Of a stretch of DNA of 64,000 nt, positions 1,585 to 26,857 are shown one piece after another. The notes under the pieces are model-generated. The model saw only the letters and a program-made list of their open reading frames with translations, ran no database searches and had not been told where the DNA came from. Source of the stretch: an uncultured Candidatus Saccharibacteria bacterium. Lineage in GTDB: Bacteria > Patescibacteriota > Minisyncoccia > Phycocordibacterales > DATDWN01. The DNA lies in contig CAYRRP010000001.1 in assembly GCA_964426735.1 (NCBI GenBank), positions 75,923-139,922 of the forward strand. Direction: 5' to 3'. Each line of letters begins with the position of its first letter. Positions within the stretch are counted from its first letter, which is position 1. The position numbers and the translations under genes were made by a program.

Positions 1585-1966
1585 GGTTTTGTGGAGGCAT
1601 AGCCAAAAGCAGAGCTTTCTTAATTAAGTCCTCTTGCTCTGGAGAGAGTGGTGCGTTCTGATTTTCCAGTTTTACTGTAGCTTCGACCTTTTCTCTGAAT
1701 TTAGGATTTCTGTGTCTTAACCAAAAACTGATAGCGTTCCAGTTTCTATCCTTAATGAGAGATAGAAGTTGATTCTCACTCATGTCATTAACCAAGGCTT
1801 CACCTTCAGACAAGGCAAGTTCCATTTCGTCTAGAAACTTTGGATCTTCCTTACGCCAACGGTAGATACTGTTTCTAGAGATATTTGTTTTCTCACATGC
1901 TACCTGAACTATGGGGATTTTACGGAGTTGTTCGAGGAAAGTATTCTTGATTTTATTCTTCTTCAT
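1565..1966 (-). CDS. terminase small subunit-like HTH protein
   Basis: 133 aa immediately upstream of TerL and overlapping it by a few codons. N-terminal HTH-like segment (ISRNSIYRWRKEDPKF), the usual TerS-TerL arrangement. Confidence 0.5.
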   Translation of the reverse strand: MKKNKIKNTFLEQLRKIPIVQVACEKTNISRNSIYRWRKEDPKFLDEMELALSEGEALVNDMSENQLLSLIKDRNWNAISFWLRHRNPKFREKVEATVKLENQNAPLSPEQEDLIKKALLLAMPPQNHDKSKS

Positions 1967-3233
1967 ATTTGTGAATTATCTTAGCTTTCTTTCCTGTAAG
2001 TAACTCAAATCGTTTGATAGCTAAATCACAAAATCGTGGTTCAAGTTCCACTGCATATACTCGTCGCTTTAACTGTTCCGCACATATCATAGTGCTAGAT
2101 GATCCAGCAAAGGAATCAAGAATGATGTCGCCAGGTTTAGTACACCGTCTAATCGCTTTCTCATGGAGCTTAGGGGGTTTACTCGTCGCATGCTCGTATT
2201 CTTTACCAGACAGTCGTTTTACAAACCACAAGTCCAAATGATCCAATGCTTCAGTTAGAAGATTGTTTCCAGTTGTGATTTCTTTGTTCATTACCTCATT
2301 AAGGTTCTGAATGTTTTTAGTAATGTATGGTTTGCCACGAACTCCGTATGTACATGGCTCGTAGCATTTGTTGAATGCCACAGTCGGTACTGGGTTCTGT
2401 GAGTTTTTGACCCACAAACAGACTCGTTTGTTTTCAATACCAAGTTCACGGTATATATCTTGGACGAATCCAATATATATTTGGTCCGACCAATAGAAGA
2501 TATGAGTATCTGGTTTAGATACAGACAGAGCATTAACCATGCTTTTTCTCAAGAACTCTTTGTATTCGACGTCTGTTCTGTTGTCGTTTACATTTCCACC
2601 ATAATTTTGTTTACCACCAATACCTCCGTTGTAATTGATTTTGATATTGTATACAGGATCGCTGTAAATCATTGACGCTTTCTCTTTGCCGAATAATTTC
2701 TTGAGAGAAGTTTGGTCTAATGAATCACCACAATAAAGCTTGTGACCTCCCATGAAAATCATATCTCCAAGTTTAGTTTTTGGTTTGGTGATTTTCTTGA
2801 GTTCAGCATCAACATCAAACTGATCATCTTCTGCTTCAAGGTTCTCCGACCAGATATCTTGGAGTTCATTCTTATCAAATCCAATATCAGTGAGTGTATC
2901 CATATCAAAGGATTTTAGTCCTTCAAAATCCCACTCACCATCGTTAGTGTTACTTTCGAGAGCGATTTTGTTTCTCTCGTCTTTGGTTAACTTGCGATTA
3001 GGAATGAGAACAGTAACTTCTTGTATACCAAGTTCAGTTAATGCTTTCTTTCTCTGGTTTCCCGAAAGTACTGTCCCATCTGTATCAATTTTGATGACAT
3101 CATGGAAACCACGTTGTTTGATACGATCCTTCAATTTCTCAAATGCTTCTTTAGTAATTTTCCTCGGATTGTTTCTCCAAGCTTTTAGAGACTTAACGCT
3201 CCGTTTTTCGGAACGCCATATTAATTTAGTCAT
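1953..3233 (-). CDS. ParB-like nuclease domain / DNA methyltransferase fusion (N6-adenine or N4-cytosine, beta-class motif order)
   Basis: 426 aa. N-terminal ParB-like domain, then MTase motif IV-like IYSDPVYN followed by motif I-like ILDSFAGSSST. Motif IV precedes motif I, as in the ParB-MTase fusions common in phages. Confidence 0.75.
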   Translation of the reverse strand: MTKLIWRSEKRSVKSLKAWRNNPRKITKEAFEKLKDRIKQRGFHDVIKIDTDGTVLSGNQRKKALTELGIQEVTVLIPNRKLTKDERNKIALESNTNDGEWDFEGLKSFDMDTLTDIGFDKNELQDIWSENLEAEDDQFDVDAELKKITKPKTKLGDMIFMGGHKLYCGDSLDQTSLKKLFGKEKASMIYSDPVYNIKINYNGGIGGKQNYGGNVNDNRTDVEYKEFLRKSMVNALSVSKPDTHIFYWSDQIYIGFVQDIYRELGIENKRVCLWVKNSQNPVPTVAFNKCYEPCTYGVRGKPYITKNIQNLNEVMNKEITTGNNLLTEALDHLDLWFVKRLSGKEYEHATSKPPKLHEKAIRRCTKPGDIILDSFAGSSSTMICAEQLKRRVYAVELEPRFCDLAIKRFELLTGKKAKIIHKYEEE

Positions 3234-3260
3234 GTTGTTTTAAGTTAGAACTGTTAAAAC

Positions 3261-3376
3261 AATTTAGGTCTCAGTTTAGGTGCAAACAAAAAACGGCACG
3301 AAATAGCGAGTTTAGATCAAATCTCGACCGATCTAAAACTCACACAATTTAGGTACCGTTTAGTTCCAGTTAGTTT
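3261..3376. repeat. iteron-like TTTAG(G/A)T repeats plus an 8-nt inverted repeat in the phage-module upstream region
   Basis: AATTTAGGT at 3261 and 3347, AGTTTAGGT at 3273, TTTAGATC(N12)GATCTAAA at 3311-3338, GTTTAGTT at 3358 and 3369. Lies between the divergent ParB-MTase gene and the 3490 gene. Confidence 0.5.
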
Positions 3377-3489
3377 CTTGCTATTACAAGTACCTGTAGT
3401 ATAGCTCTATGTGGGGAGGGGTCAAGTGGATAACTTTTATTAAATAGACCATTTCGTTATACAAGTCTTTAAAATGGTAAAATAGGCTT

Positions 3490-4797
3490 ATGTCGTCATT
3501 AGGACCAACGATCATTTTCGATAAGTCAGTACTTCAATCACTTAGTGAAGATGAGTCTGTTTGGCTTGATGCTTTTTATCATTCAATAATTACACCCCTA
3601 TTTTATGTGGAAACTCTAGCCGATTTGGCTAAGAAATCTGAATTAAGACCTGCGGAAGATACTGTTCGCATGATTGCAAACAAAGTACCTGAAATGGGTT
3701 CTAGCCCAAATACTCATCACAGAGAACTGGTAGTCGGTAATCTGTTGGGATATGAAGTTAGTAATTCTAGAAGACCAATTCTTAGCGGAGGTAAGAGATA
3801 TACCATGAATAATAAGATCGGTGTCGTTTTTGATGAACCTCCAGAAACTAAAGCTTTTCAACGCTGGCAAAAACAAGAGTTTAATGAACTTGAAAGAGAG
3901 ATTGCTTCACTATGGAGGCAAGCTCTTGCAGAATTTGACTATGATTATTATTTTAATTTAATCAGAGAAATTACTGGTTCAACATTTACAAAACCAAAAA
4001 ATATTGAGGAAGCATACGATATGGCTTCAAAGATAGTTCGTGGAGAAGGTGACAGGTATAAATTATTGATAATGGCTAGAAATTTATTCAACATAAGCGA
4101 TGCAGGTTTCAGAGAAATATTGAAAGGATGGAATAAAAGTGGAATGCTTTCTATAAGCCAATTCGCTCCATATGCGAGTCATGTATTAAAAGTTGATATC
4201 TTTTTTATATTATGTACTAGTTCAAGTCTCATTTCTAGAGATAGAAAAAGTAACAGAGCAGATATGGCTTATTTGTATTATCTACCATTCGCCAATATTT
4301 TTACTTCAAGCGACAATTTACACAAAAGAGTCACACCGTTATTTTTAGAATCAGATCAAAGATTTATTTATGGTCCTGATTTAAAAAAGGATTTATCAGA
4401 ATTAGATGAGCACTTTTTTAAATTAAAAACCGATGATGAAAAAAGAGGTGGGGTTTTTGGTTTTGCCTGGTATCCTCCAGACAACAGTAGATTTTTAACT
4501 ACTCAGATGTGGGACAACATGAGACCTAACTGGAGATTGAGTGATAATCCAATGAGACAAGAAAAAATAAAGCCTAAAAATCAAAAGGTTCCAGATGGAT
4601 TAAAGGAGCACATTAAGAATGCTTATGAACAAATAAAGGCACAAAAAGGGACTCCAGTCTCTCCAGAGTTTGACCTTGAGGAAGCAAATGATGTAATTGT
4701 AAAAAGGACGGTTAGGGGGAGAAAAGGTAAATGGCAACTATTTTCAGATGAGATGATGAACTCTAAAGAGAGACTAATGGATGATGATGCAGATTAG
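3490..4797 (+). CDS. hypothetical protein (435 aa), possibly prophage accessory
   Basis: Long ORF with complex composition and no motif I can name. Sits directly next to the prophage module. Confidence 0.55.
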   Translation: MSSLGPTIIFDKSVLQSLSEDESVWLDAFYHSIITPLFYVETLADLAKKSELRPAEDTVRMIANKVPEMGSSPNTHHRELVVGNLLGYEVSNSRRPILSGGKRYTMNNKIGVVFDEPPETKAFQRWQKQEFNELEREIASLWRQALAEFDYDYYFNLIREITGSTFTKPKNIEEAYDMASKIVRGEGDRYKLLIMARNLFNISDAGFREILKGWNKSGMLSISQFAPYASHVLKVDIFFILCTSSSLISRDRKSNRADMAYLYYLPFANIFTSSDNLHKRVTPLFLESDQRFIYGPDLKKDLSELDEHFFKLKTDDEKRGGVFGFAWYPPDNSRFLTTQMWDNMRPNWRLSDNPMRQEKIKPKNQKVPDGLKEHIKNAYEQIKAQKGTPVSPEFDLEEANDVIVKRTVRGRKGKWQLFSDEMMNSKERLMDDDAD

Positions 4798-4841
4798 TTA
4801 TTTGCGTTAGTCTATTTTTTCACTAATATACAAATATAACG

Positions 4842-5786
4842 ATGAAAAAGTATGAAGATATATTTGTGTCCACACCTAAACCCTTTCAAGAAATTGGGAG
4901 TAATTTTGTTATTTCTGGATTAGTTCCAGTCTCTTGGTTAAAAGATGAGTTTGGAACTTTTGATAATCGGTTATTTTTAGATCTAATTGATATTGATGGT
5001 ATAGCTTTTAGTTGTGACACAATCTTTCTTCCGAGAATTAACTGGTTATGGAGATTATTAAGGAAAGTACCGTTTGATGCTAATGTCCAGTTTAACCAAT
5101 TTAACCTCGGCTTCTTAGAAAAATCTCAAGGAAGAGTTACTATTAAAATTTCAGCAAAGATGGAGGATGATAAATCTGTTTATATACCACTAATCATTAA
5201 GGAGTTAGAGCCAGAAAATGGAGTAGATCTTGAAGTACTAGAAAAACATAAAACTGTCGGTAGTAGGATAAAGCAGTATAAACAAGATTTAAAAGATTAT
5301 TACAGACAACTTGAAGAAATCAGAAAAAGACGTGAAGTTAAAGATAATATTTTTGATGATGCAGAATCAAATAAATTTTCATACTCAGGAGACCTAAATT
5401 TTGCTCATGAAATTTTGAACATTTTAAATCAATCAGAAGAAAATTTCGAAGAGTATCTTTATAGTGAGGAGGACAAAGAAGAACAAAAGTTAGAGGAGAA
5501 ATATAAAGATGCAATTGCGTGGAGGGGACCACTTTTTCGTGGACTGGTTGCAAAATTTGGTCCATTTGAAATGAGAGTCTATAGTAATGACCATGATAAA
5601 CATTTCCATGTAATACATAAAAGTAAGGGCGTGAACGCAAGATTTTCTTTTCCTCAAATTGAACTGATGAACTATAAAAAATCTAGAAATACCATTGGAA
5701 GTAAAGAATTAAAAAAAATTTGTGAGTTTTGTAAACGACCAGAAATTTTTGAAAGATTAGAAAAAGAATTCAGTAAGAGACAATAA
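4842..5786 (+). CDS. hypothetical protein with C-terminal DUF4160 domain
   Basis: 314 aa. C-terminal ...RVYSNDHDKHFHVIHKSKGVNARFSF... matches the DUF4160 signature (NDHxPPHFH). An acidic coiled-coil linker separates it from an N-terminal beta-rich domain. Confidence 0.5.
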   Translation: MKKYEDIFVSTPKPFQEIGSNFVISGLVPVSWLKDEFGTFDNRLFLDLIDIDGIAFSCDTIFLPRINWLWRLLRKVPFDANVQFNQFNLGFLEKSQGRVTIKISAKMEDDKSVYIPLIIKELEPENGVDLEVLEKHKTVGSRIKQYKQDLKDYYRQLEEIRKRREVKDNIFDDAESNKFSYSGDLNFAHEILNILNQSEENFEEYLYSEEDKEEQKLEEKYKDAIAWRGPLFRGLVAKFGPFEMRVYSNDHDKHFHVIHKSKGVNARFSFPQIELMNYKKSRNTIGSKELKKICEFCKRPEIFERLEKEFSKRQ

Positions 5787-20290: not shown

Positions 20291-21574
20291 TTAAGTAAGT
20301 TGCTTGTGTAGTTTGTATATATCTCCAGCTCCTAGTGTAATAATTACAGTATTTTCGGCACATTCCTGGATCTTTTCTTGCGCATCCTCAAAAGTTTTTA
20401 CAAGAAAAGCTTTTTTTCCTGGAATACTTTTTACAAGCATTTCTGAAGTGATAGATGGGTCAAATTCTTCACGTGATGCATAAATTGGCAAAATATAAAT
20501 TTCATCCGCAAGATCGAATGATTGAGAAAATCCTTTCAAGAGTGATTTAGTTCTACTGAACAGATGAGGTTGAAAAAAGACTACCTTTTTCATGCTAGGG
20601 TGTTTCTCTTGAAGCCCCTGAAGGACAGCTTTTATTTCTGTAGGGTGATGGGCATAGTCATCATAGAGAAGTGCTCCGTTTTTTGTTTTTCCATGAAAAT
20701 CAAAACGTCTCCATGTTCCATTAAACTGTGCGAGAGAATTTTCGATCACTGTAGTATCAACAGCAAGGAAGTGTGCGATAGCTTGTGCCACGGCAGCATT
20801 CTGTTGATTATGTAAACCAGGTGCTTTAAGTAGTCTTTGTGTATTAATGTATGAAGTGTAATCAATGATTGTACAACATAAACCATCTAAAACAGGAATA
20901 AGTTTTGGGTCAGATGGGTTACAAATGATCGCTCCTGATCTTGGGACTCGGAGGGCAAGTTCTCTGAAAGCTGACTGTATGTCCGCAAGGTCTCTATAAT
21001 AATCTAAATGATCTGTATCAATATTGGTGATAGCAAGAACAGTTGGGTAAAGGTTTAAAAAAGATCGGCGGTATTCACATGCTTCTACTATAAAATAATT
21101 ACTTCGCCCAACAATGAGGTTACTCTCAGAGTCTTTCATAAGACTACCAACAATGACAGTGGGGTCAAGTGAAGAATCTATACATATTTTTGCAAGCATT
21201 GCAGTACTTGTGGTCTTTCCGTGTGTACCAGAGATTGCGATGGTGCACATATCTTTTGAGATAAGTGCAAGCATTTGAGGATATGTTTTTGTTGGAATAT
21301 TATGTGAATGAGCTCGCAATAACTCAGGGTTGTTTTCAGGAATAGCAATTGTGTGTACGACTAAATCAACATCGGCACCAATATTTTCTTCAGTTTGTCC
21401 AGCAAAAATCTGTATCCCGAGTGCAGTAAGTTGATCAGTAACATGAGAAGTGTTTATATCAGAACCTGTCACAATTTTACCTGAGACATGCATGAGTCGA
21501 GCGATGGCAGATATTCCGATTCCGCCAATGCCAATAAAGTGAACCTTTTTGATTTGATTGAGATCTATTTCCAT
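20291..21574 (-). CDS. murC: UDP-N-acetylmuramate--L-alanine ligase
   Basis: GIGGIGISAIARLM N-terminal Rossmann motif and P-loop GTHGKTTSTAML. 427 aa. Confidence 0.9.
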   Translation of the reverse strand: MEIDLNQIKKVHFIGIGGIGISAIARLMHVSGKIVTGSDINTSHVTDQLTALGIQIFAGQTEENIGADVDLVVHTIAIPENNPELLRAHSHNIPTKTYPQMLALISKDMCTIAISGTHGKTTSTAMLAKICIDSSLDPTVIVGSLMKDSESNLIVGRSNYFIVEACEYRRSFLNLYPTVLAITNIDTDHLDYYRDLADIQSAFRELALRVPRSGAIICNPSDPKLIPVLDGLCCTIIDYTSYINTQRLLKAPGLHNQQNAAVAQAIAHFLAVDTTVIENSLAQFNGTWRRFDFHGKTKNGALLYDDYAHHPTEIKAVLQGLQEKHPSMKKVVFFQPHLFSRTKSLLKGFSQSFDLADEIYILPIYASREEFDPSITSEMLVKSIPGKKAFLVKTFEDAQEKIQECAENTVIITLGAGDIYKLHKQLT

Positions 21575-22917
21575 TTTTTTATGATACGTATGAACTGATC
21601 ATTTCGATCATATTCATTCTTAAATAAACCAAATGATGCAAACCCAGGGCTAAACAATATAACGTCTCCTCTTGTTGCGTGTGTAAGCGTATATGCAACA
21701 GCTTTTTTTAACCCATCTACTTCGATATATCTAGTGTGTAGATTCTTTTTTAATATATCTGTCCCAGTACCAGGAAGGAGAATGCTTTGCACGGAGTGTT
21801 TTTGTATGGTTTTAGATAGTGTTGTAGTATCCAGACCTTTGTTTGAACCACCGAGAATAAGGGTGATGTTACTTTTAGGATATCTATAGGAAACCGCTTT
21901 GATTCCAGCGATAGTGGCTTCTGGTGTTGTTGAGTTATTGTCATTGATGATGTGGATACCTGAGACAGTGTGAAGATGTTGTAGCCTCCCTTCAAGACCA
22001 GTAAATGAACGTAATGCCTTTTGTATTGATGAGTCGTCTAATCCACATTTTTTTGCGACTGTATATGCATATGAAGCATTACGGATATTATGTTCCCCAA
22101 AAATATGCATAGGAGTATTTGAAACTTTTGAAATAGTTGGCGTGTATATATTACTTTGTATAGTGTTTGGTAGTAATGCACGCATGGTTTTATTTGTTAC
22201 TAACACATCGTCTTTTTTCTGGAATATACATATATTTGATTTATCTTTAAGATATATTTTCATGTCATTCTTATAATAGTTCATATGATCAGGCATAAGA
22301 TTTGTGAATACTGCAATGTTGGGAGAAATTTTTTCATCCCCAAATCCTTGGCATTGCCATGAGTCAAGTTCGAGCACTACAAAATCTCCAGATGAAACTT
22401 TTGATAGTAAAGGAAGAGTCGCTTTCATTCGCATATTACCACCTAAATGTACTTTAGAGCCTAGTTTTTTCTCATTACTTTTGAGTAGGTGGTACGTAAT
22501 AGCTGTGGTCATAGACTTACCTCGTGTACCTGTAATGCCAATAAGCGTAATATCAAGTTTTGTGTCATATATGATACGAGCAAACAATGAGGCGTCCATC
22601 ACAACAGGAATATTCTGTGCGCGAGCATGAGTGATGTACGGTGAATCAATCGGTACTCCTGCCGCTTTAACAACAATATCTACTTTTTCGAAATCTTCTA
22701 TTTTGTGTGTACCAAGCACGTATCGAATATTTTTGTATTTTTTGAGTGCCTGAAGGGAAGTTTCAAGTTCAGTTTTGTTTTTTAGATCAGTTACGGTGAG
22801 TTCTGCACCACAATCTGCAAGAAAAGATGTGACTTGTAAACCACGACCAAGGACGCCAAGTCCCATAATGGTAATCTTTTTATTTTTAAATCTAGATATA
22901 TATAAATTTTTATTCAT
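21565..22917 (-). CDS. murD: UDP-N-acetylmuramoylalanine--D-glutamate ligase
   Basis: GLGVLGRG N-terminal motif and P-loop ITGTRGKSMTTAI. Overlaps the murC start by 10 nt. Confidence 0.9.
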   Translation of the reverse strand: MNKNLYISRFKNKKITIMGLGVLGRGLQVTSFLADCGAELTVTDLKNKTELETSLQALKKYKNIRYVLGTHKIEDFEKVDIVVKAAGVPIDSPYITHARAQNIPVVMDASLFARIIYDTKLDITLIGITGTRGKSMTTAITYHLLKSNEKKLGSKVHLGGNMRMKATLPLLSKVSSGDFVVLELDSWQCQGFGDEKISPNIAVFTNLMPDHMNYYKNDMKIYLKDKSNICIFQKKDDVLVTNKTMRALLPNTIQSNIYTPTISKVSNTPMHIFGEHNIRNASYAYTVAKKCGLDDSSIQKALRSFTGLEGRLQHLHTVSGIHIINDNNSTTPEATIAGIKAVSYRYPKSNITLILGGSNKGLDTTTLSKTIQKHSVQSILLPGTGTDILKKNLHTRYIEVDGLKKAVAYTLTHATRGDVILFSPGFASFGLFKNEYDRNDQFIRIIKKWK

Positions 22918-22921
22918 ATGG

Positions 22922-24367
22922 TTACTGTTTTTCTACTTCCTCTTTGTCTGAGAAATGCGTCGTATGGTCAGAGAATATCTGATATTGCTCATGACCTTTA
23001 CCAGCAACAACAACGATGTCACCAGCTTGTGCGTGAGTAAATGCGTGGGCGATGGCAAGAGATCGGTCGGGAATACAGATATATTTTTTTTCTGAGGGTA
23101 TATCTTTAATCATGTCTTTTAATATATCTTCAACTGACTCACTTCGAGGGTTATCAGAAGTAAAAATTGATATATCAGATAATGTACTTGAGATAACACC
23201 CATCGGACTTCGTTTCCCTTTATCACGATCACCACCACAACCGATCACAGTGATGATTTTTGTGTGTAGATTTGATATTTGTCTCAATGTAGAGAGTATG
23301 TTTGAAAGGGCGTCCGGTGTATGTGCGTAGTCGATTACAGAATATACACCAGACTTTGATTTTAGAAATTCAAGTCTTCCAGATGGAGGAGTGAGTTGAG
23401 TAATCGTTTCGAGTAAAGTGTTTTTAGGAATTCCTAAGAGGATGCTTGCTCCATATATGCCAAGTATGTTGTATGCATTAAAAATACCAGTAAGTTTTGA
23501 GAAGCATTCTTCATTGTTGATTGAAAGAAGCAGTCCTTCAAATGACTGATTGATTATCTTACCTGTAAATTCTGAGTGAGTTGTATTGTTAAGCGAAAAA
23601 TAATATTCTTTTGCCCGTGTATCATTAAGCATCTCTACTGAATATGGATCATCTGCATTTGCAAGAGCAAAAGAATGTTTTGATAGATTGTCAAAAAGTT
23701 CTTTTTTGGCACGAGCATATGCATCAAGAGTTTTGTGGTAATCGAGATGGTCATGAGTAAGGTTTGTAAATATTGCTCCGGTGAAAAAAAGACCATACGT
23801 TCTTTTTTGATGTATTGCGTGAGATGAGCACTCCATGAATGCATGTGTGCATCCTTTCGAAACTGCATATGCAAGAAAGGAATTTAAGGTAATGGGATCT
23901 GGAGTTGTGTGCGTTGCGGGAAATACTTCATCGTTAATTTTATTTTCTATTGTTGATAAAAGAGCAGTGTTATATCCAAGTATACGGAAGGTCTTAAAAA
24001 GCAAGGTGGCTGTTGTTGTTTTTCCATTTGTTCCAGTTACTCCGATTACTTTTAGTTTTTCTGAAGGATTGTTGTAAAAATTTTTAGCGATTTGGGCAAG
24101 AGCGATTCGAGCATCTCTGACTTGAATATATACTACCCCTGAAGTTTCCATAGGTGGTTTATTTTCTGAGATGATCACCGTGGCGCCTTTCTGAGTTGCT
24201 TCACGTATAAAAGTGTTACCATCTCTTAAAGTGCCCGTTAGAGCGATAAATAGTGATTGAGGTTGTGCTGTTCGAGAATCAATAGAAAGAGATGATATGT
24301 ATATATCAGTGATAGTGTTACTTTGTATGGTTTCAACTTCTTGCAAAAGATCAGTTAGTTTTTTCAT
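22922..24367 (-). CDS. murE: UDP-N-acetylmuramoyl-L-alanyl-D-glutamate--2,6-diaminopimelate ligase
   Basis: P-loop GVTGTNGKTTTATLL. A DNPR motif (TSDNPRSE) indicates meso-DAP specificity. Start probably at MKKLTDLL. Confidence 0.9.
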   Translation of the reverse strand: MKKLTDLLQEVETIQSNTITDIYISSLSIDSRTAQPQSLFIALTGTLRDGNTFIREATQKGATVIISENKPPMETSGVVYIQVRDARIALAQIAKNFYNNPSEKLKVIGVTGTNGKTTTATLLFKTFRILGYNTALLSTIENKINDEVFPATHTTPDPITLNSFLAYAVSKGCTHAFMECSSHAIHQKRTYGLFFTGAIFTNLTHDHLDYHKTLDAYARAKKELFDNLSKHSFALANADDPYSVEMLNDTRAKEYYFSLNNTTHSEFTGKIINQSFEGLLLSINNEECFSKLTGIFNAYNILGIYGASILLGIPKNTLLETITQLTPPSGRLEFLKSKSGVYSVIDYAHTPDALSNILSTLRQISNLHTKIITVIGCGGDRDKGKRSPMGVISSTLSDISIFTSDNPRSESVEDILKDMIKDIPSEKKYICIPDRSLAIAHAFTHAQAGDIVVVAGKGHEQYQIFSDHTTHFSDKEEVEKQ

Positions 24368-24368
24368 T

Positions 24369-25889
24369 TTAAAATTCATTAAGAAGAGATACATCTGCAC
24401 CGATTGAGTTCAATCGTTCGGCAATATTTTCGTATCCGCGATTAATAGCATATACATTACGAAGAATGGAAGTTCCTGTGGCACCAAGCATTGCAACAAG
24501 GATGATCATTGATGGACGAAGAGCGGGTGGGCATACCACTTGTGTCGCGTGTAGAGGTGTGGGTCCGTTAATAAATACCCTATGAGGGTCAGCGATAATA
24601 ATGTCGCTACCAAGACGGTTTAATTCATTGAAATAGATTGCTCGGCTTTCCCACATCCAGTCATGAATAAGGGTGGTACCTTTTGCCTGAGTTGCGATAG
24701 GTACAAAGAAGGGCAGATTGTCTGAATTTATGCCCGGGTATGCAGATGCATGAATCTTATCTTTTAATGCGGTAAGTTTTGAAGGATACACTGTTATATC
24801 ACATAGTTTGGTGTATCCATTTTTTGCTACATAGAGAGGTCCTTCTGTGTATTTCATTCCCATTTTTTCAAGCTTTAGTATCTCCAGAGAAAGAAAATCA
24901 ATTGGACATCGTGTGATGGTAAGTTTTGATTTTGTAACGAGTGCTGCGGCAATAAACATCATTGATTCGGTAGGGTCTTCACTGTTCCAATATTCAATTG
25001 GTTTATTTATCTCGCTTATTCCATGAATAATAAGTGTACTTGTGCCAATTCCTTCAATCTTCACTCCGCATTGTTTAAGAAAAAAACACACTTCTTGTAC
25101 CTGATAATTTGGTGGAGTAAAACGAAGAGTGGTAGTACCTGGAATAAGTGCAGAAGCAATAAGAAGGTTTTCTGTAGCTGTGTCTGAAGCTTCAAATAAT
25201 ACAATATCCGCGGGCTGTAGCTTCTTAGTTATTATTTCATAATGTGTTTGTTTGGTGGCTATATGTGCACCGAGCGACTCAAGTCCGTATCGATGGGCGG
25301 CGATTGTTCGTTGCCCCATTTTACATCCACCTGCATGTGGTATTGTAAAATTTTTTTCGTGATGTATGAGTGCACCAATAAGCATAAGTACTGATCGTAT
25401 GCGTGTTGAATTTACGGCACGTAATTTTTCTACAGAAAATTTTTTGGGAGGTTGGATGCGCACCGTATTTTTATCCACCCAGTCAATTTTAACGCCAATA
25501 CACTCAAATATTTCAATAATGCGACTGATTTCCTCAATCCGAGGGATGCCGTGGAGTGTTGTTGTGTTTTTGTTGAGGAGGGAAGCGCAAAAAAGACCAA
25601 GCGCACCATTTTTAGATGTGTTGGTTTGTATTGATCCTGATAACGTTTTTCCTCCTGTAATCTTAAAATCATCTGTAGTGTTCTCTACTTTTACAATCGT
25701 TTTACCAAGAATGGTACTTATTTTAGAAAGTAAATCTGCAGTTAGGTTTTGATCGCCTTTTTCTATTCGAGCAACGGCACTCTGAGAAGTTTTTAGTTTT
25801 TTTGCGAAATCTCCTTGTGTCAAACCTGCATCCTCACGCATTTGTTTAATAATCATCCCTATTTTTTCCATGCTTTTTTGTTGAGACAT
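24369..25889 (-). CDS. murA: UDP-N-acetylglucosamine 1-carboxyvinyltransferase with N-terminal XRE-type HTH domain
   Basis: 506 aa. Residues about 10-70 form an HTH_XRE fold (MREDAGLTQGDFAKKLKTSQSAVARIEKGDQNLTADLLSKISTILG). The remainder is canonical MurA (SKNGALGL; active-site Cys in HAGGCKMGQRTI). Confidence 0.85.
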   Translation of the reverse strand: MSQQKSMEKIGMIIKQMREDAGLTQGDFAKKLKTSQSAVARIEKGDQNLTADLLSKISTILGKTIVKVENTTDDFKITGGKTLSGSIQTNTSKNGALGLFCASLLNKNTTTLHGIPRIEEISRIIEIFECIGVKIDWVDKNTVRIQPPKKFSVEKLRAVNSTRIRSVLMLIGALIHHEKNFTIPHAGGCKMGQRTIAAHRYGLESLGAHIATKQTHYEIITKKLQPADIVLFEASDTATENLLIASALIPGTTTLRFTPPNYQVQEVCFFLKQCGVKIEGIGTSTLIIHGISEINKPIEYWNSEDPTESMMFIAAALVTKSKLTITRCPIDFLSLEILKLEKMGMKYTEGPLYVAKNGYTKLCDITVYPSKLTALKDKIHASAYPGINSDNLPFFVPIATQAKGTTLIHDWMWESRAIYFNELNRLGSDIIIADPHRVFINGPTPLHATQVVCPPALRPSMIILVAMLGATGTSILRNVYAINRGYENIAERLNSIGADVSLLNEF

Positions 25890-25895
25890 ATGTTT

Positions 25896-25968
25896 GTGGA
25901 TAAGTAATTAGATATATCATATATGATATATTATTATTTACAACAAAAGGTAACTGTGGATAATTAAA
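25896..25968. promoter_or_regulatory. murA/murB divergent promoter region with operator-like repeats
   Basis: Direct repeat TGTGGATAAGTAA (25896-25908) and TGTGGATAATTAA (25956-25968) flank a palindrome GATATATCATATATGATATAT (25911-25931). Confidence 0.5.
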
Positions 25969-25972
25969 AAAT

Positions 25973-26857
25973 ATGAACATTCAAAAAGATATTATTCTTG
26001 CGCCATACACTACATACCATATCGGCGGGCCAGCGGATTATTTTGTGGTAGCTCACACAAAGCATCAGTTGTCAGAGGCAATTACATATGCTCGAAAAAA
26101 TAAAATGCCGTATTTCGTACTTGGGTCAGGAGCAAATATTTTATGTTCTGATAAAGGGTTTAGAGGTTTGGTGATAAAAAATGAAGCACACAATTTTTAT
26201 TTTAAAGATAGTACTTTGGTTGCAGAAAGTGGTGCAACGATCGCTTCACTTATACAAAAAAGTTTGGAGAAAAATTTATCAGACCTTGAACATTTTGCAG
26301 GTATACCAAGTACAGTGGGTGGAGCACTGTGGCAAAACCTTCATTTTCTTTCACCTGATCGTAAGGAAACAGTTTTTATTGAGACTGTTCTAGAGTCAGC
26401 GGAAATTATGGATGAATCAGGAGATATTTTTGTAGTAGATAAAGATTTTTTTGAGTTTGGGTACGATAAAAGTATCTTGCATACACGGAATTTAGTTGTT
26501 CTCGAAGCAAAATTTAAACTTGAGTATAAAGATAAAGAAAGAATCAAAAGACAGGTAGAAGATAATTTAAAATGGAGAAATGATAAGCAGCCACCTGTCG
26601 AACTTTTTCCTTCGTGCGGGTCAGTGTTCAAGAAAATAGAAGGAGTGGGAGCAGGAAGACTTATCGATCAAGTGGGTTTAAAAGGTTTTCGAGTCGGAGG
26701 AGCGCAAGTCTCAGAGAAGCATGCAAATTTTATTATAAATACAGGAGATGCAACCGCAAATGACGTTATGAGTGTTATCGGTTTCATCAAAGAAAAGGTA
26801 CTTAAGGAAACAGGGTATACACTTGAGACCGAGATTAGTTTTATTGGGGAGTTTTAA
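25973..26857 (+). CDS. murB: UDP-N-acetylenolpyruvoylglucosamine reductase
   Basis: FAD-binding N-domain (GGPADYFVV) and C-terminal SCGSVFKK motif. 294 aa. Confidence 0.9.
   Translation: MNIQKDIILAPYTTYHIGGPADYFVVAHTKHQLSEAITYARKNKMPYFVLGSGANILCSDKGFRGLVIKNEAHNFYFKDSTLVAESGATIASLIQKSLEKNLSDLEHFAGIPSTVGGALWQNLHFLSPDRKETVFIETVLESAEIMDESGDIFVVDKDFFEFGYDKSILHTRNLVVLEAKFKLEYKDKERIKRQVEDNLKWRNDKQPPVELFPSCGSVFKKIEGVGAGRLIDQVGLKGFRVGGAQVSEKHANFIINTGDATANDVMSVIGFIKEKVLKETGYTLETEISFIGEF

Follow-up and report, generated by a model that had tools for sequence, protein, structure and literature searches.

A Patescibacterial MurA with an N-terminal XRE-type helix-turn-helix domain and a predicted palindromic operator in its own promoter

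MurA, which fosfomycin targets, carries out the first committed step of peptidoglycan synthesis. In the 64,000-nucleotide (nt) stretch analyzed here, which derives from contig CAYRRP010000001.1 of an uncultured Candidatus Saccharibacteria bacterium and is referred to as the window, the murA product carries a helix-turn-helix (HTH) domain in front of the enzyme, and its gene diverges from murB across a short spacer that contains a palindrome. This arrangement raises the question of whether the protein, called HTH-MurA hereafter, acts on its own promoter. A preliminary description made from the letters of the window had proposed that an HTH is fused to MurA, that the divergent promoter of murA and murB harbors an operator and that the enzyme may bind there, at its own promoter, and this core interpretation is supported as far as computation goes. 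We regard it as probable that HTH-MurA is an autoregulatory DNA-binding protein that exerts negative autoregulation on its own gene. The gene and the parts of its product are located as follows.

24369..25889, minus strand: HTH-murA, a single open reading frame of 506 amino acids (aa), stop codon included
25692..25865, minus strand: XRE/Cro-type HTH domain, N-terminal, aa 9-66 (Pfam HTH_3 and helices of the AlphaFold2 model)
25767..25790, minus strand: recognition helix TSQSAVAR, aa 34-41 (alignment of fused homologues)
25671..25706, minus strand: linker between the domains, aa 62-73, about 12 aa (low confidence in the AlphaFold2 model)
24372..25670, minus strand: complete MurA catalytic domain, aa 74-506 (NF006873 and alignment to solved MurA structures)
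25323..25325, minus strand: codon of the active-site Cys189, the fosfomycin target (ACA on the plus strand, TGT on the coding strand)

The N-terminal extension matched the Pfam family HTH_3 (PF01381) at aa 14-66 with an E value of 2e-13 and 50.5 bits against a cutoff of 23 when the whole protein was searched, and with 54.2 bits against the same cutoff when the domain was searched alone. Both scores lie well above the cutoff, and the XRE/Cro-type HTH reported in the preliminary description is therefore confirmed by profile similarity. The rest of the protein matched Pfam EPSP_synthase (PF00275) at aa 78-493 (E value 4e-43) and passed the NCBIfam MurA subfamily model NF006873 (aa 73-502, 319.3 bits, cutoff 297), but it did not pass the strict MurA equivalog TIGR01072 (303.9 bits against a cutoff of 392.7). 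The catalytic domain is therefore a member of the MurA subfamily, but a divergent one. The MurA part aligned with solved MurA structures from end to end, and the motif GGCKMGQRT with C189 aligned to GGCAIGQRP of the solved MurA 5ujs (loop GGC(K/A)xGQR); together with the NF006873 match, this bears out the claim that a full MurA, including the cysteine targeted by fosfomycin, follows the HTH. Among 33 distinct MurA sequences of known structure to which the protein was matched, not one aligned to the extension itself (query aa 1-69). Residues K93, C189, R194, D390, R458 and R484 were invariant in a 40-sequence alignment of homologues, and we take them, mapped by motif, to correspond to Lys22, Cys115, Arg120, Asp305, Arg371 and Arg397 of E. 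coli MurA.

The AlphaFold2 model of HTH-MurA (mean predicted local distance difference test score, pLDDT, of 87.5) comprised a four-helix N-terminal domain, with helices at aa 2-20, 25-32, 36-43 and 51-61, and a confident MurA body. The linker between them was modeled with low confidence (block mean pLDDT of 57; below 50 at aa 67-70). Across the fused proteins the linker varied in sequence and was constant in length to within one residue, which is compatible, speculatively, with a mechanical coupling of MurA domain closure to the HTH. The relatives of known structure nearest to the HTH were the designed DNA binder DBP48 and an MBF1-like protein, followed by autoregulatory DNA-binding dimers, namely restriction-modification controller proteins, ClgR and SinR.

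A fusion of this kind could arise artificially from a wrong start codon or a frameshift. The codons at the domain junction read CTT GGT AAA ACG ATT GTA AAA GTA GAG AAC ACT ACA GAT GAT TTT AAG, with no ATG, GTG or TTG in frame nearby, and the earliest in-frame methionine within the MurA part is M169. The catalytic domain is thus producible as a fusion only. Whether the MurA plus HTH_XRE architecture extends beyond this locus, a point left to database searches by the preliminary description, was addressed at several levels of divergence. The protein is 100% identical to the HTH-MurA product (P0001) on three other contigs, and a word-indexed protein search for close homologues returned dozens at 65-92% identity carrying both PF01381 and PF00275, all from metagenome-assembled genomes of the Patescibacteria/Parcubacteria type. 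A scan of GTDB with one genome per species, using the HTH plus the MurA N-terminus as query and tblastn for confirmation, located the fusion in at least 557 species-level Patescibacteria genomes, including Nomurabacteria, Zambryskibacteria, Abawacabacteria, Gracilibacteria, Peribacteria and the closed genome RAAC4_OD1_1 (L058). When the representatives of 50%-identity clusters were searched exhaustively with HMMER, fused proteins were found down to 30-46% identity (P0122, P0125, P0127, P0129, P0132, P0134, P0138 and P0252). The missing junction start codons and the conservation of the fusion in hundreds of genomes rule out a wrong-start or frameshift artefact, and with it the doubt over the start codon and the conservation of the HTH that the preliminary description had attached to its own reading.

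In a rough neighbor-joining tree of the MurA domain, fused forms occupied deep as well as crown branches, and non-fused forms were scattered inside the crown; because of this distribution, the tree suggests that the fusion is old and that the HTH was later lost repeatedly. HTH-MurA is, judging from these comparisons, a genuine and ancient two-domain protein of the Patescibacteria. Residues T34, S35, Q36, S37, A38 and R41 were invariant in an alignment of 33 fused homologues, and the stretch TSQSAVARxExGxQN, which covers the recognition helix and the following turn, was kept while other HTH positions varied. The recognition-helix motif was the same in nearly all of 76 related loci (L004 has SQSALVR; L064 and L068 begin SSQSA). 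Due to this invariance, a check for covariation between the helix and operator variants across these loci was uninformative.

If the HTH is a DNA-binding domain, the spacer in front of the gene is the natural place to look for its site. The spacer between murA and the divergent murB measures 83 nt (25890-25972) and contains a perfect 20-nt palindrome, ATATATCATATATGATATAT, at 25912-25931, with CATATATG as its central part. The palindrome of the preliminary description is therefore borne out; its 21-nt version had included one additional G at 25911. Allowing up to 3 mismatches, the 20-mer occurs once in the window, against 0.01 occurrences expected from shuffled sequences.

25913..25930, no strand assigned: predicted 18-bp palindromic operator, TATATCATA joined to TATGATATA, core TATATCATATATGATATA (conserved upstream of HTH-murA)

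The 130 nt upstream of the start codon were aligned in 77 loci, and the palindrome was seen in almost every upstream region despite differing flanks and neighbors (murB, a tRNA or an unrelated gene). The pattern ATATCAYATRTGATAT, with up to 1 mismatch, lay within 200 nt upstream of HTH-murA at 71 of 76 loci, so that the alignment of orthologous intergenic regions suggested at the outset did find the site conserved. Outside those upstream regions the pattern matched only 5 times in 817 kb of loci; two of the five were in loci with an unparsable start, and two stood about 600 nt upstream of the gene, where they probably front a preceding gene. In the position-frequency table, information content was limited to 18 bp with sharp edges, and the two outermost palindrome positions, which were not part of the search pattern, were still kept in 72 of 74 loci. 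Substitutions fell at symmetric positions (Y/R beside the center; TATCTCA/TGAGATA), and locus L050 has the TATCTCA/TGAGATA change on both arms. At six loci (L016, L022, L032, L042, L058 and L062) an extra 110-170 nt separates the promoter-operator region from the HTH-murA ATG, placing the operator 110-190 nt upstream. This extra segment has inverted ends such as CCCGTTAGAG...CTCTAACGGG and might have arisen by insertion of a small element or act as a structured leader.

Non-fused murA genes provided a control. At five distinct non-fused loci, where MurA is 74-79% identical to HTH-MurA and TATAAT lies near the start codon, neither the palindrome (up to 3 mismatches) nor a separate HTH gene was found. 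The palindromic site in the gene's own promoter thus co-varies in presence and absence with the HTH, at 71/76 fused against 0/5 non-fused loci (Fisher exact p of about 1e-5, a value that ignores shared ancestry). The non-fused murA genes of Zambryskibacteria-like relatives (L081-L085, L206-L208) were in a parB neighborhood with topA and relA/spoT nearby, which differs from the murB-linked surroundings of the fused genes; a divergent parB directly adjoins murA in 4 of the 5 loci, and miaA lies in between in L206/L207. About 25 nt upstream of the non-fused murA in L081/L082 the promoter reads TTATCATATGCTATAAT, which looks like a decayed palindrome half and would be consistent with a secondary loss of both HTH and operator.

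Among the most divergent fused proteins the site was also observed. The gene of P0252 (30% identity) has ATATCAGATATGATAT at -20, and that of P0127 (40% identity) has a perfect palindrome copy at -16. For P0138 (39% identity, L212), HTH-murA comes third in an operon, after NUDIX and NTP_transferase genes, and a one-mismatch palindrome at about 185-200 precedes the first gene of that operon. No copy was present in the 712 nt available of the P0134 contig.

A scan at the DNA level, in which the 18-mer was searched through metagenome contigs, returned 125 occurrences. At 43 of them, an open reading frame with the recognition-helix motif Q[SG]x[VIL][SANV][RK][VILMF]ExG lay within 800 nt downstream, and the motif had zero occurrences, in six frames, in the remaining 518 kb of those loci. 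HTH-MurA accounted for about 27 of the 43. The other cases included stand-alone XRE genes (L088, L090, L103 and L128) and operons in which a Gp49/HigB-like toxin (PF05973) precedes an HTH_3 antitoxin (L115, L141, L154, L157 and L099); at L128, a stand-alone 74-aa HTH with the same helix is preceded by the palindrome between TTGGCA and TATAAT. These XRE and Gp49/HTH_3 cases have the identical 18-bp palindrome in their promoters and near-identical recognition helices, on unrelated contigs with a GC content of 33-49%. Because stand-alone XRE genes and Gp49/HTH_3 operons with the same helix carry it, the palindrome appears to be the cognate site of this XRE sub-clade, independent of MurA. The fusion probably brought in both the HTH domain and its site, and the comparison suggests an autoregulatory XRE module, of the toxin-antitoxin type or another, as the origin of the two. 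In a single case (L160, 2169-2186), the palindrome was 9 nt upstream of glmS, whose product (611 aa, beginning MCGIIGY...) is GlmS, the enzyme of the first step of UDP-N-acetylglucosamine (UDP-GlcNAc) synthesis; this copy may hint at a wider precursor regulon.

The location of the palindrome relative to the promoters suggests how it could act. In the relatives, a weak TTGCAA at -16..-11 and TAtaaT at +7..+12 surround the palindrome center, so that the palindrome takes up the 17-nt spacer of the promoter and reaches into the -10 element, a classic repressor position. Most ATG codons are 17-24 nt from the palindrome center, and this spacing implies leaderless or near-leaderless mRNAs. At least 35 of the 76 related loci have murB as the immediate divergent neighbor of HTH-murA, at a distance of about 30-90 nt, and at several metagenome loci the start codons of both genes are 2-10 nt from the palindrome. 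The corresponding features of the window are given below.

25916..25943, minus strand: murA promoter candidate, sigma-70-type TTGTAA-16-TATGAT with its -10 inside the palindrome (consensus scan only)
25937..25964, plus strand: murB promoter candidate TTTACA-16-GATAAT, 10/12 matches (consensus scan only)
25973..26857, plus strand: murB (UDP-N-acetylmuramate dehydrogenase), divergent
20291..24367, minus strand: murE, murD and murC, tightly packed downstream of HTH-murA (by spacing)

The position of the candidate murB promoter predicts a leaderless or near-leaderless murB transcript as well. On the other side, murA is followed by murE, murD and murC at spacings of -10 to +4 nt, and judging from this spacing they probably form one operon with HTH-murA here; the murA-murE-murD-murC order is unusual among the relatives. 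An RNA element in the spacer was considered and rejected, as the predicted fold was weak (-8.8 kcal/mol, z = -1.7) and no Rfam match was obtained at E values up to 1; the palindrome also lies upstream of the likely transcription start in most relatives, which counts against such an element.

From these elements we infer a simple mechanism, of which physical binding, dimerization, repression rather than activation and the co-transcription of murE, murD and murC are all deduced from sequence. The HTH would bind the 18-bp palindrome as a dimer. Because the palindrome occupies the promoter spacer and the start of the -10 element, bound HTH-MurA would be expected to occlude these and to block RNA polymerase, and the concentration of MurA would in this way set its own transcription. 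Where murB diverges at 30-90 nt, the same site would also control murB, and with it both steps in the synthesis of UDP-MurNAc (UDP-N-acetylmuramic acid); in the window it would probably control murE-murD-murC too, owing to their tight spacing behind murA.

Several observations weigh against this interpretation. Solved MurA is commonly described as a monomer, whereas the palindrome calls for two HTHs. The outer halves of the palindrome (TGATATA) resemble -10 elements, so that its conservation could partly reflect promoter function. The distance from operator center to ATG is 32 nt here, against 17-24 nt in most relatives, and the exact murA promoter of the window is a consensus match only. The single operator copy in the 64 kb available is too few to define a regulon, and a second, non-fused murA is possible elsewhere in a genome of which 64 kb were seen.

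The resemblance to -10 elements is the basis of one rival explanation, namely that the palindrome is a compact bidirectional promoter, made of two back-to-back TGATATA elements that serve leaderless murA and murB, with the HTH uninvolved. The murB-murA intergenic regions of only 30-90 nt, the several loci with start codons 2-10 nt away from the palindrome and a palindrome-to-ATG spacing that fits leaderless transcripts agree with it. The non-fused murA promoters, however, have TATAAT near the start codon and no palindrome, while the palindrome is kept where the upstream neighbor is a tRNA or another gene instead of murB, is virtually missing from all other promoters in the 817 kb of the same genomes and recurs at unrelated operons whose sole common feature is the HTH subtype. 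On this specificity (71/76 fused, 0/5 non-fused, and the link to the same HTH clade), a generic promoter motif was rejected. We consider the rival quite improbable in its exclusive form; a bidirectional promoter is also compatible with the operator explanation, as an operator can overlap a -10 element, and the two are therefore not true alternatives. A different role for the HTH itself would be that of a protein-protein or protein-RNA module that localizes MurA to the cell-wall machinery, on the model of RodZ, whose XRE-type HTH binds MreB, or of the ribosome-binding MBF1. Cell-wall biology offers XRE-fold domains whose partners are not DNA, such as that of RodZ, MBF1 is among the sequence neighbors of the HTH, and the constant linker length would suit an interaction module. 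Like HTH-MurA, RodZ is a cell-wall protein with an XRE-fold HTH, but its HTH is of the HTH_25 subtype and is accompanied by a transmembrane segment, whereas in HTH-MurA the HTH is followed directly by MurA, with no transmembrane segment and with a DNA palindrome. The HTH_25 model scored only 17.7 bits (cutoff 24.6) against 54 bits for HTH_3, and together with the missing membrane anchor this excludes a RodZ-like HTH. The localization model leaves unexplained why the palindrome tracks the presence and absence of the HTH and why it recurs at HTH genes of the stand-alone and antitoxin kind that share the helix, and we judge this model very unlikely.

The roles could also be reversed, with the MurA domain serving as the ligand-sensing module of a transcription factor while catalysis is provided by another murA elsewhere. 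Enzymes gave rise to many regulators, the genome is visible over 64 kb only, which leaves room for a second murA, and at 304 bits the TIGR01072 match stays under the strict equivalog cutoff of 393. Yet all six catalytic residues are invariant in the 40 homologues, the domain is 74-79% identical to non-fused relatives and passes the MurA subfamily model, and the gene is within the murA-murE-murD-murC cluster and beside murB, which makes a purely regulatory MurA highly improbable. An assignment of HTH-MurA as a type II antitoxin was also rejected, as the window has no adjacent toxin gene and the neighbors are murB and murE. Genes for Gp49, RelE or HipA were absent beside HTH-murA in the window and in the gene tables of L209, L210 and L212, a search that did not include the 76 GTDB loci.

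The spacer contains a further pair of elements, TGTGGATAAGTAA at 25895-25907 and TGTGGATAATTAA at 25955-25967, which are direct repeats identical at 12 of 13 positions and 60 nt apart.

25895..25903, minus strand: proximal TTATCCACA site, core of repeat 25895-25907, between the operator and the murA ATG
25955..25963, minus strand: distal TTATCCACA site, core of repeat 25955-25967, overlapping the candidate murB -10

The preliminary description had read these repeats, written as TGTGGATAA(G/T)TAA, as operator-like elements flanking the palindrome. They are indeed present twice and flank it, and one relative (L003) has the same layout, with two DnaA-box-like copies that flank the palindrome; the motif occurs in about 11 related loci. 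Their assignment as additional operators for the HTH did not hold, because they are missing from most loci that keep the HTH and the palindrome (65 of 76), and we consider it unlikely. The repeats bear no similarity to the palindrome half-site, are not linked to other operons of this HTH clade and have as their 9-nt core TTATCCACA, which we take to be a perfect match to the E. coli DnaA-box consensus. Both TTATNCACA sites of the window, the only two in its 64 kb, are inside the murA/murB spacer, while the 13-mer repeat as such (up to 2 mismatches) was not enriched in the window (5 found, 5.4 expected). Among the relatives, 11 of the 76 upstream regions carried TTATCCAC, with 12 copies in total, an enrichment of 20-30-fold relative to the remaining sequence of the loci; 11 of the 12 copies were in the murA sense (that of L046 is reversed), and they were located 16-83 nt before the ATG, mostly 45-83. 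The direct repeats are more likely, from this pattern, to be a site for another protein, and one possibility is that murA/murB are under transcriptional control by DnaA in this sub-clade. A replication origin as the explanation of the DnaA boxes found no support; the cumulative GC skew is monotonic across 25.9 kb, and the open reading frames at 1953-5786 gave no match to DnaA.

An extended version of autoregulation can be imagined, in which a one-protein feedback loop would let HTH-MurA sense the pool of peptidoglycan precursors. The open-to-closed transition of MurA, which depends on the binding of UDP-GlcNAc and phosphoenolpyruvate or on the "dormant complex" with UDP-MurNAc, would reposition or dimerize the HTHs through the linker of fixed length. 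Operator occupancy, and the transcription of murA, murB and murE-D-C, would then follow metabolites and not protein amount alone, with the flanking DnaA boxes adding a replication-coupled input in this sub-clade. We offer this loop tentatively, as a rather doubtful extension. If true, HTH-MurA would be the first case of a MurA turned into a transcriptional sensor, and its circuit of regulator and operator would rank among the first to be defined in the Patescibacteria, a largely uncultured group.

The combination of an enzyme and a DNA-binding domain in one polypeptide is shared with the "trigger enzymes" BirA, PutA and NadR, whose operators are in the promoters of their own pathway genes; the same autogenous logic is predicted for HTH-MurA. 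The enzyme here has the EPSP-synthase fold and thus differs from the biotin ligase BirA, the proline dehydrogenase PutA and NadR, and the DNA-binding fold is XRE HTH_3, where BirA has a winged HTH and PutA a ribbon-helix-helix. The switching metabolite of the known systems is established, whereas for HTH-MurA the constant linker length only hints at a coupling of the domains. HigA-type/Gp49-associated antitoxins and the controller (C) proteins share with HTH-MurA the HTH_3 domain and a palindromic operator in their own promoter, but they are 70-130 aa long and have no enzyme domain, while HTH-MurA has its N-terminal HTH on a 430-aa enzyme. The catalytic domain, active-site residues and fosfomycin-target cysteine are those of the canonical MurA proteins of E. 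coli, E. cloacae and mycobacteria and of MurAA/MurAB of Firmicutes.

The known control of MurA is post-translational and includes UDP-MurNAc feedback and the "dormant complex", both of which belong to enterobacterial MurA, as well as IreB/ReoM-ClpCP proteolysis, direct inhibition by IreB and activation by CwlM (PMC12077105). A MurA with a built-in repressor and a predicted 18-bp operator would add transcriptional autoregulation to these controls, in an arrangement kept in hundreds of Patescibacteria species. Full-text literature searches returned no description of the HTH-MurA fusion or its operator, and databases name these fused proteins simply MurA. What appears to be new is the enzyme family in which this enzyme-repressor fusion occurs; its predicted operator is well defined. 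It would show how tiny genomes with few regulators can wire homeostasis straight into an enzyme, and the link to Gp49/XRE toxin-antitoxin operators suggests a source for the DNA-binding module and its site. The HTH-MurA/palindrome pair is open to in vitro work, for which uncultivability is no obstacle.

Two minor observations concern the surrounding genes. The mechanical open reading frame call starts murE at a GTG at 24400, which creates a 32-nt overlap with murA. An alternative ATG at 24367 is 1 nt past the murA stop codon, the junction reading TAAAATG, and is the more likely, translationally coupled start, since the resulting MurE matches its family model from residue 3. Elsewhere in the window, a terminase-like open reading frame (49-1584, Terminase_6C) and an N6/N4 DNA methylase (1953-3233) were identified, and the GC skew changes sign near 4 kb, a region that may be the edge of a prophage or mobile element or a landmark of replication.

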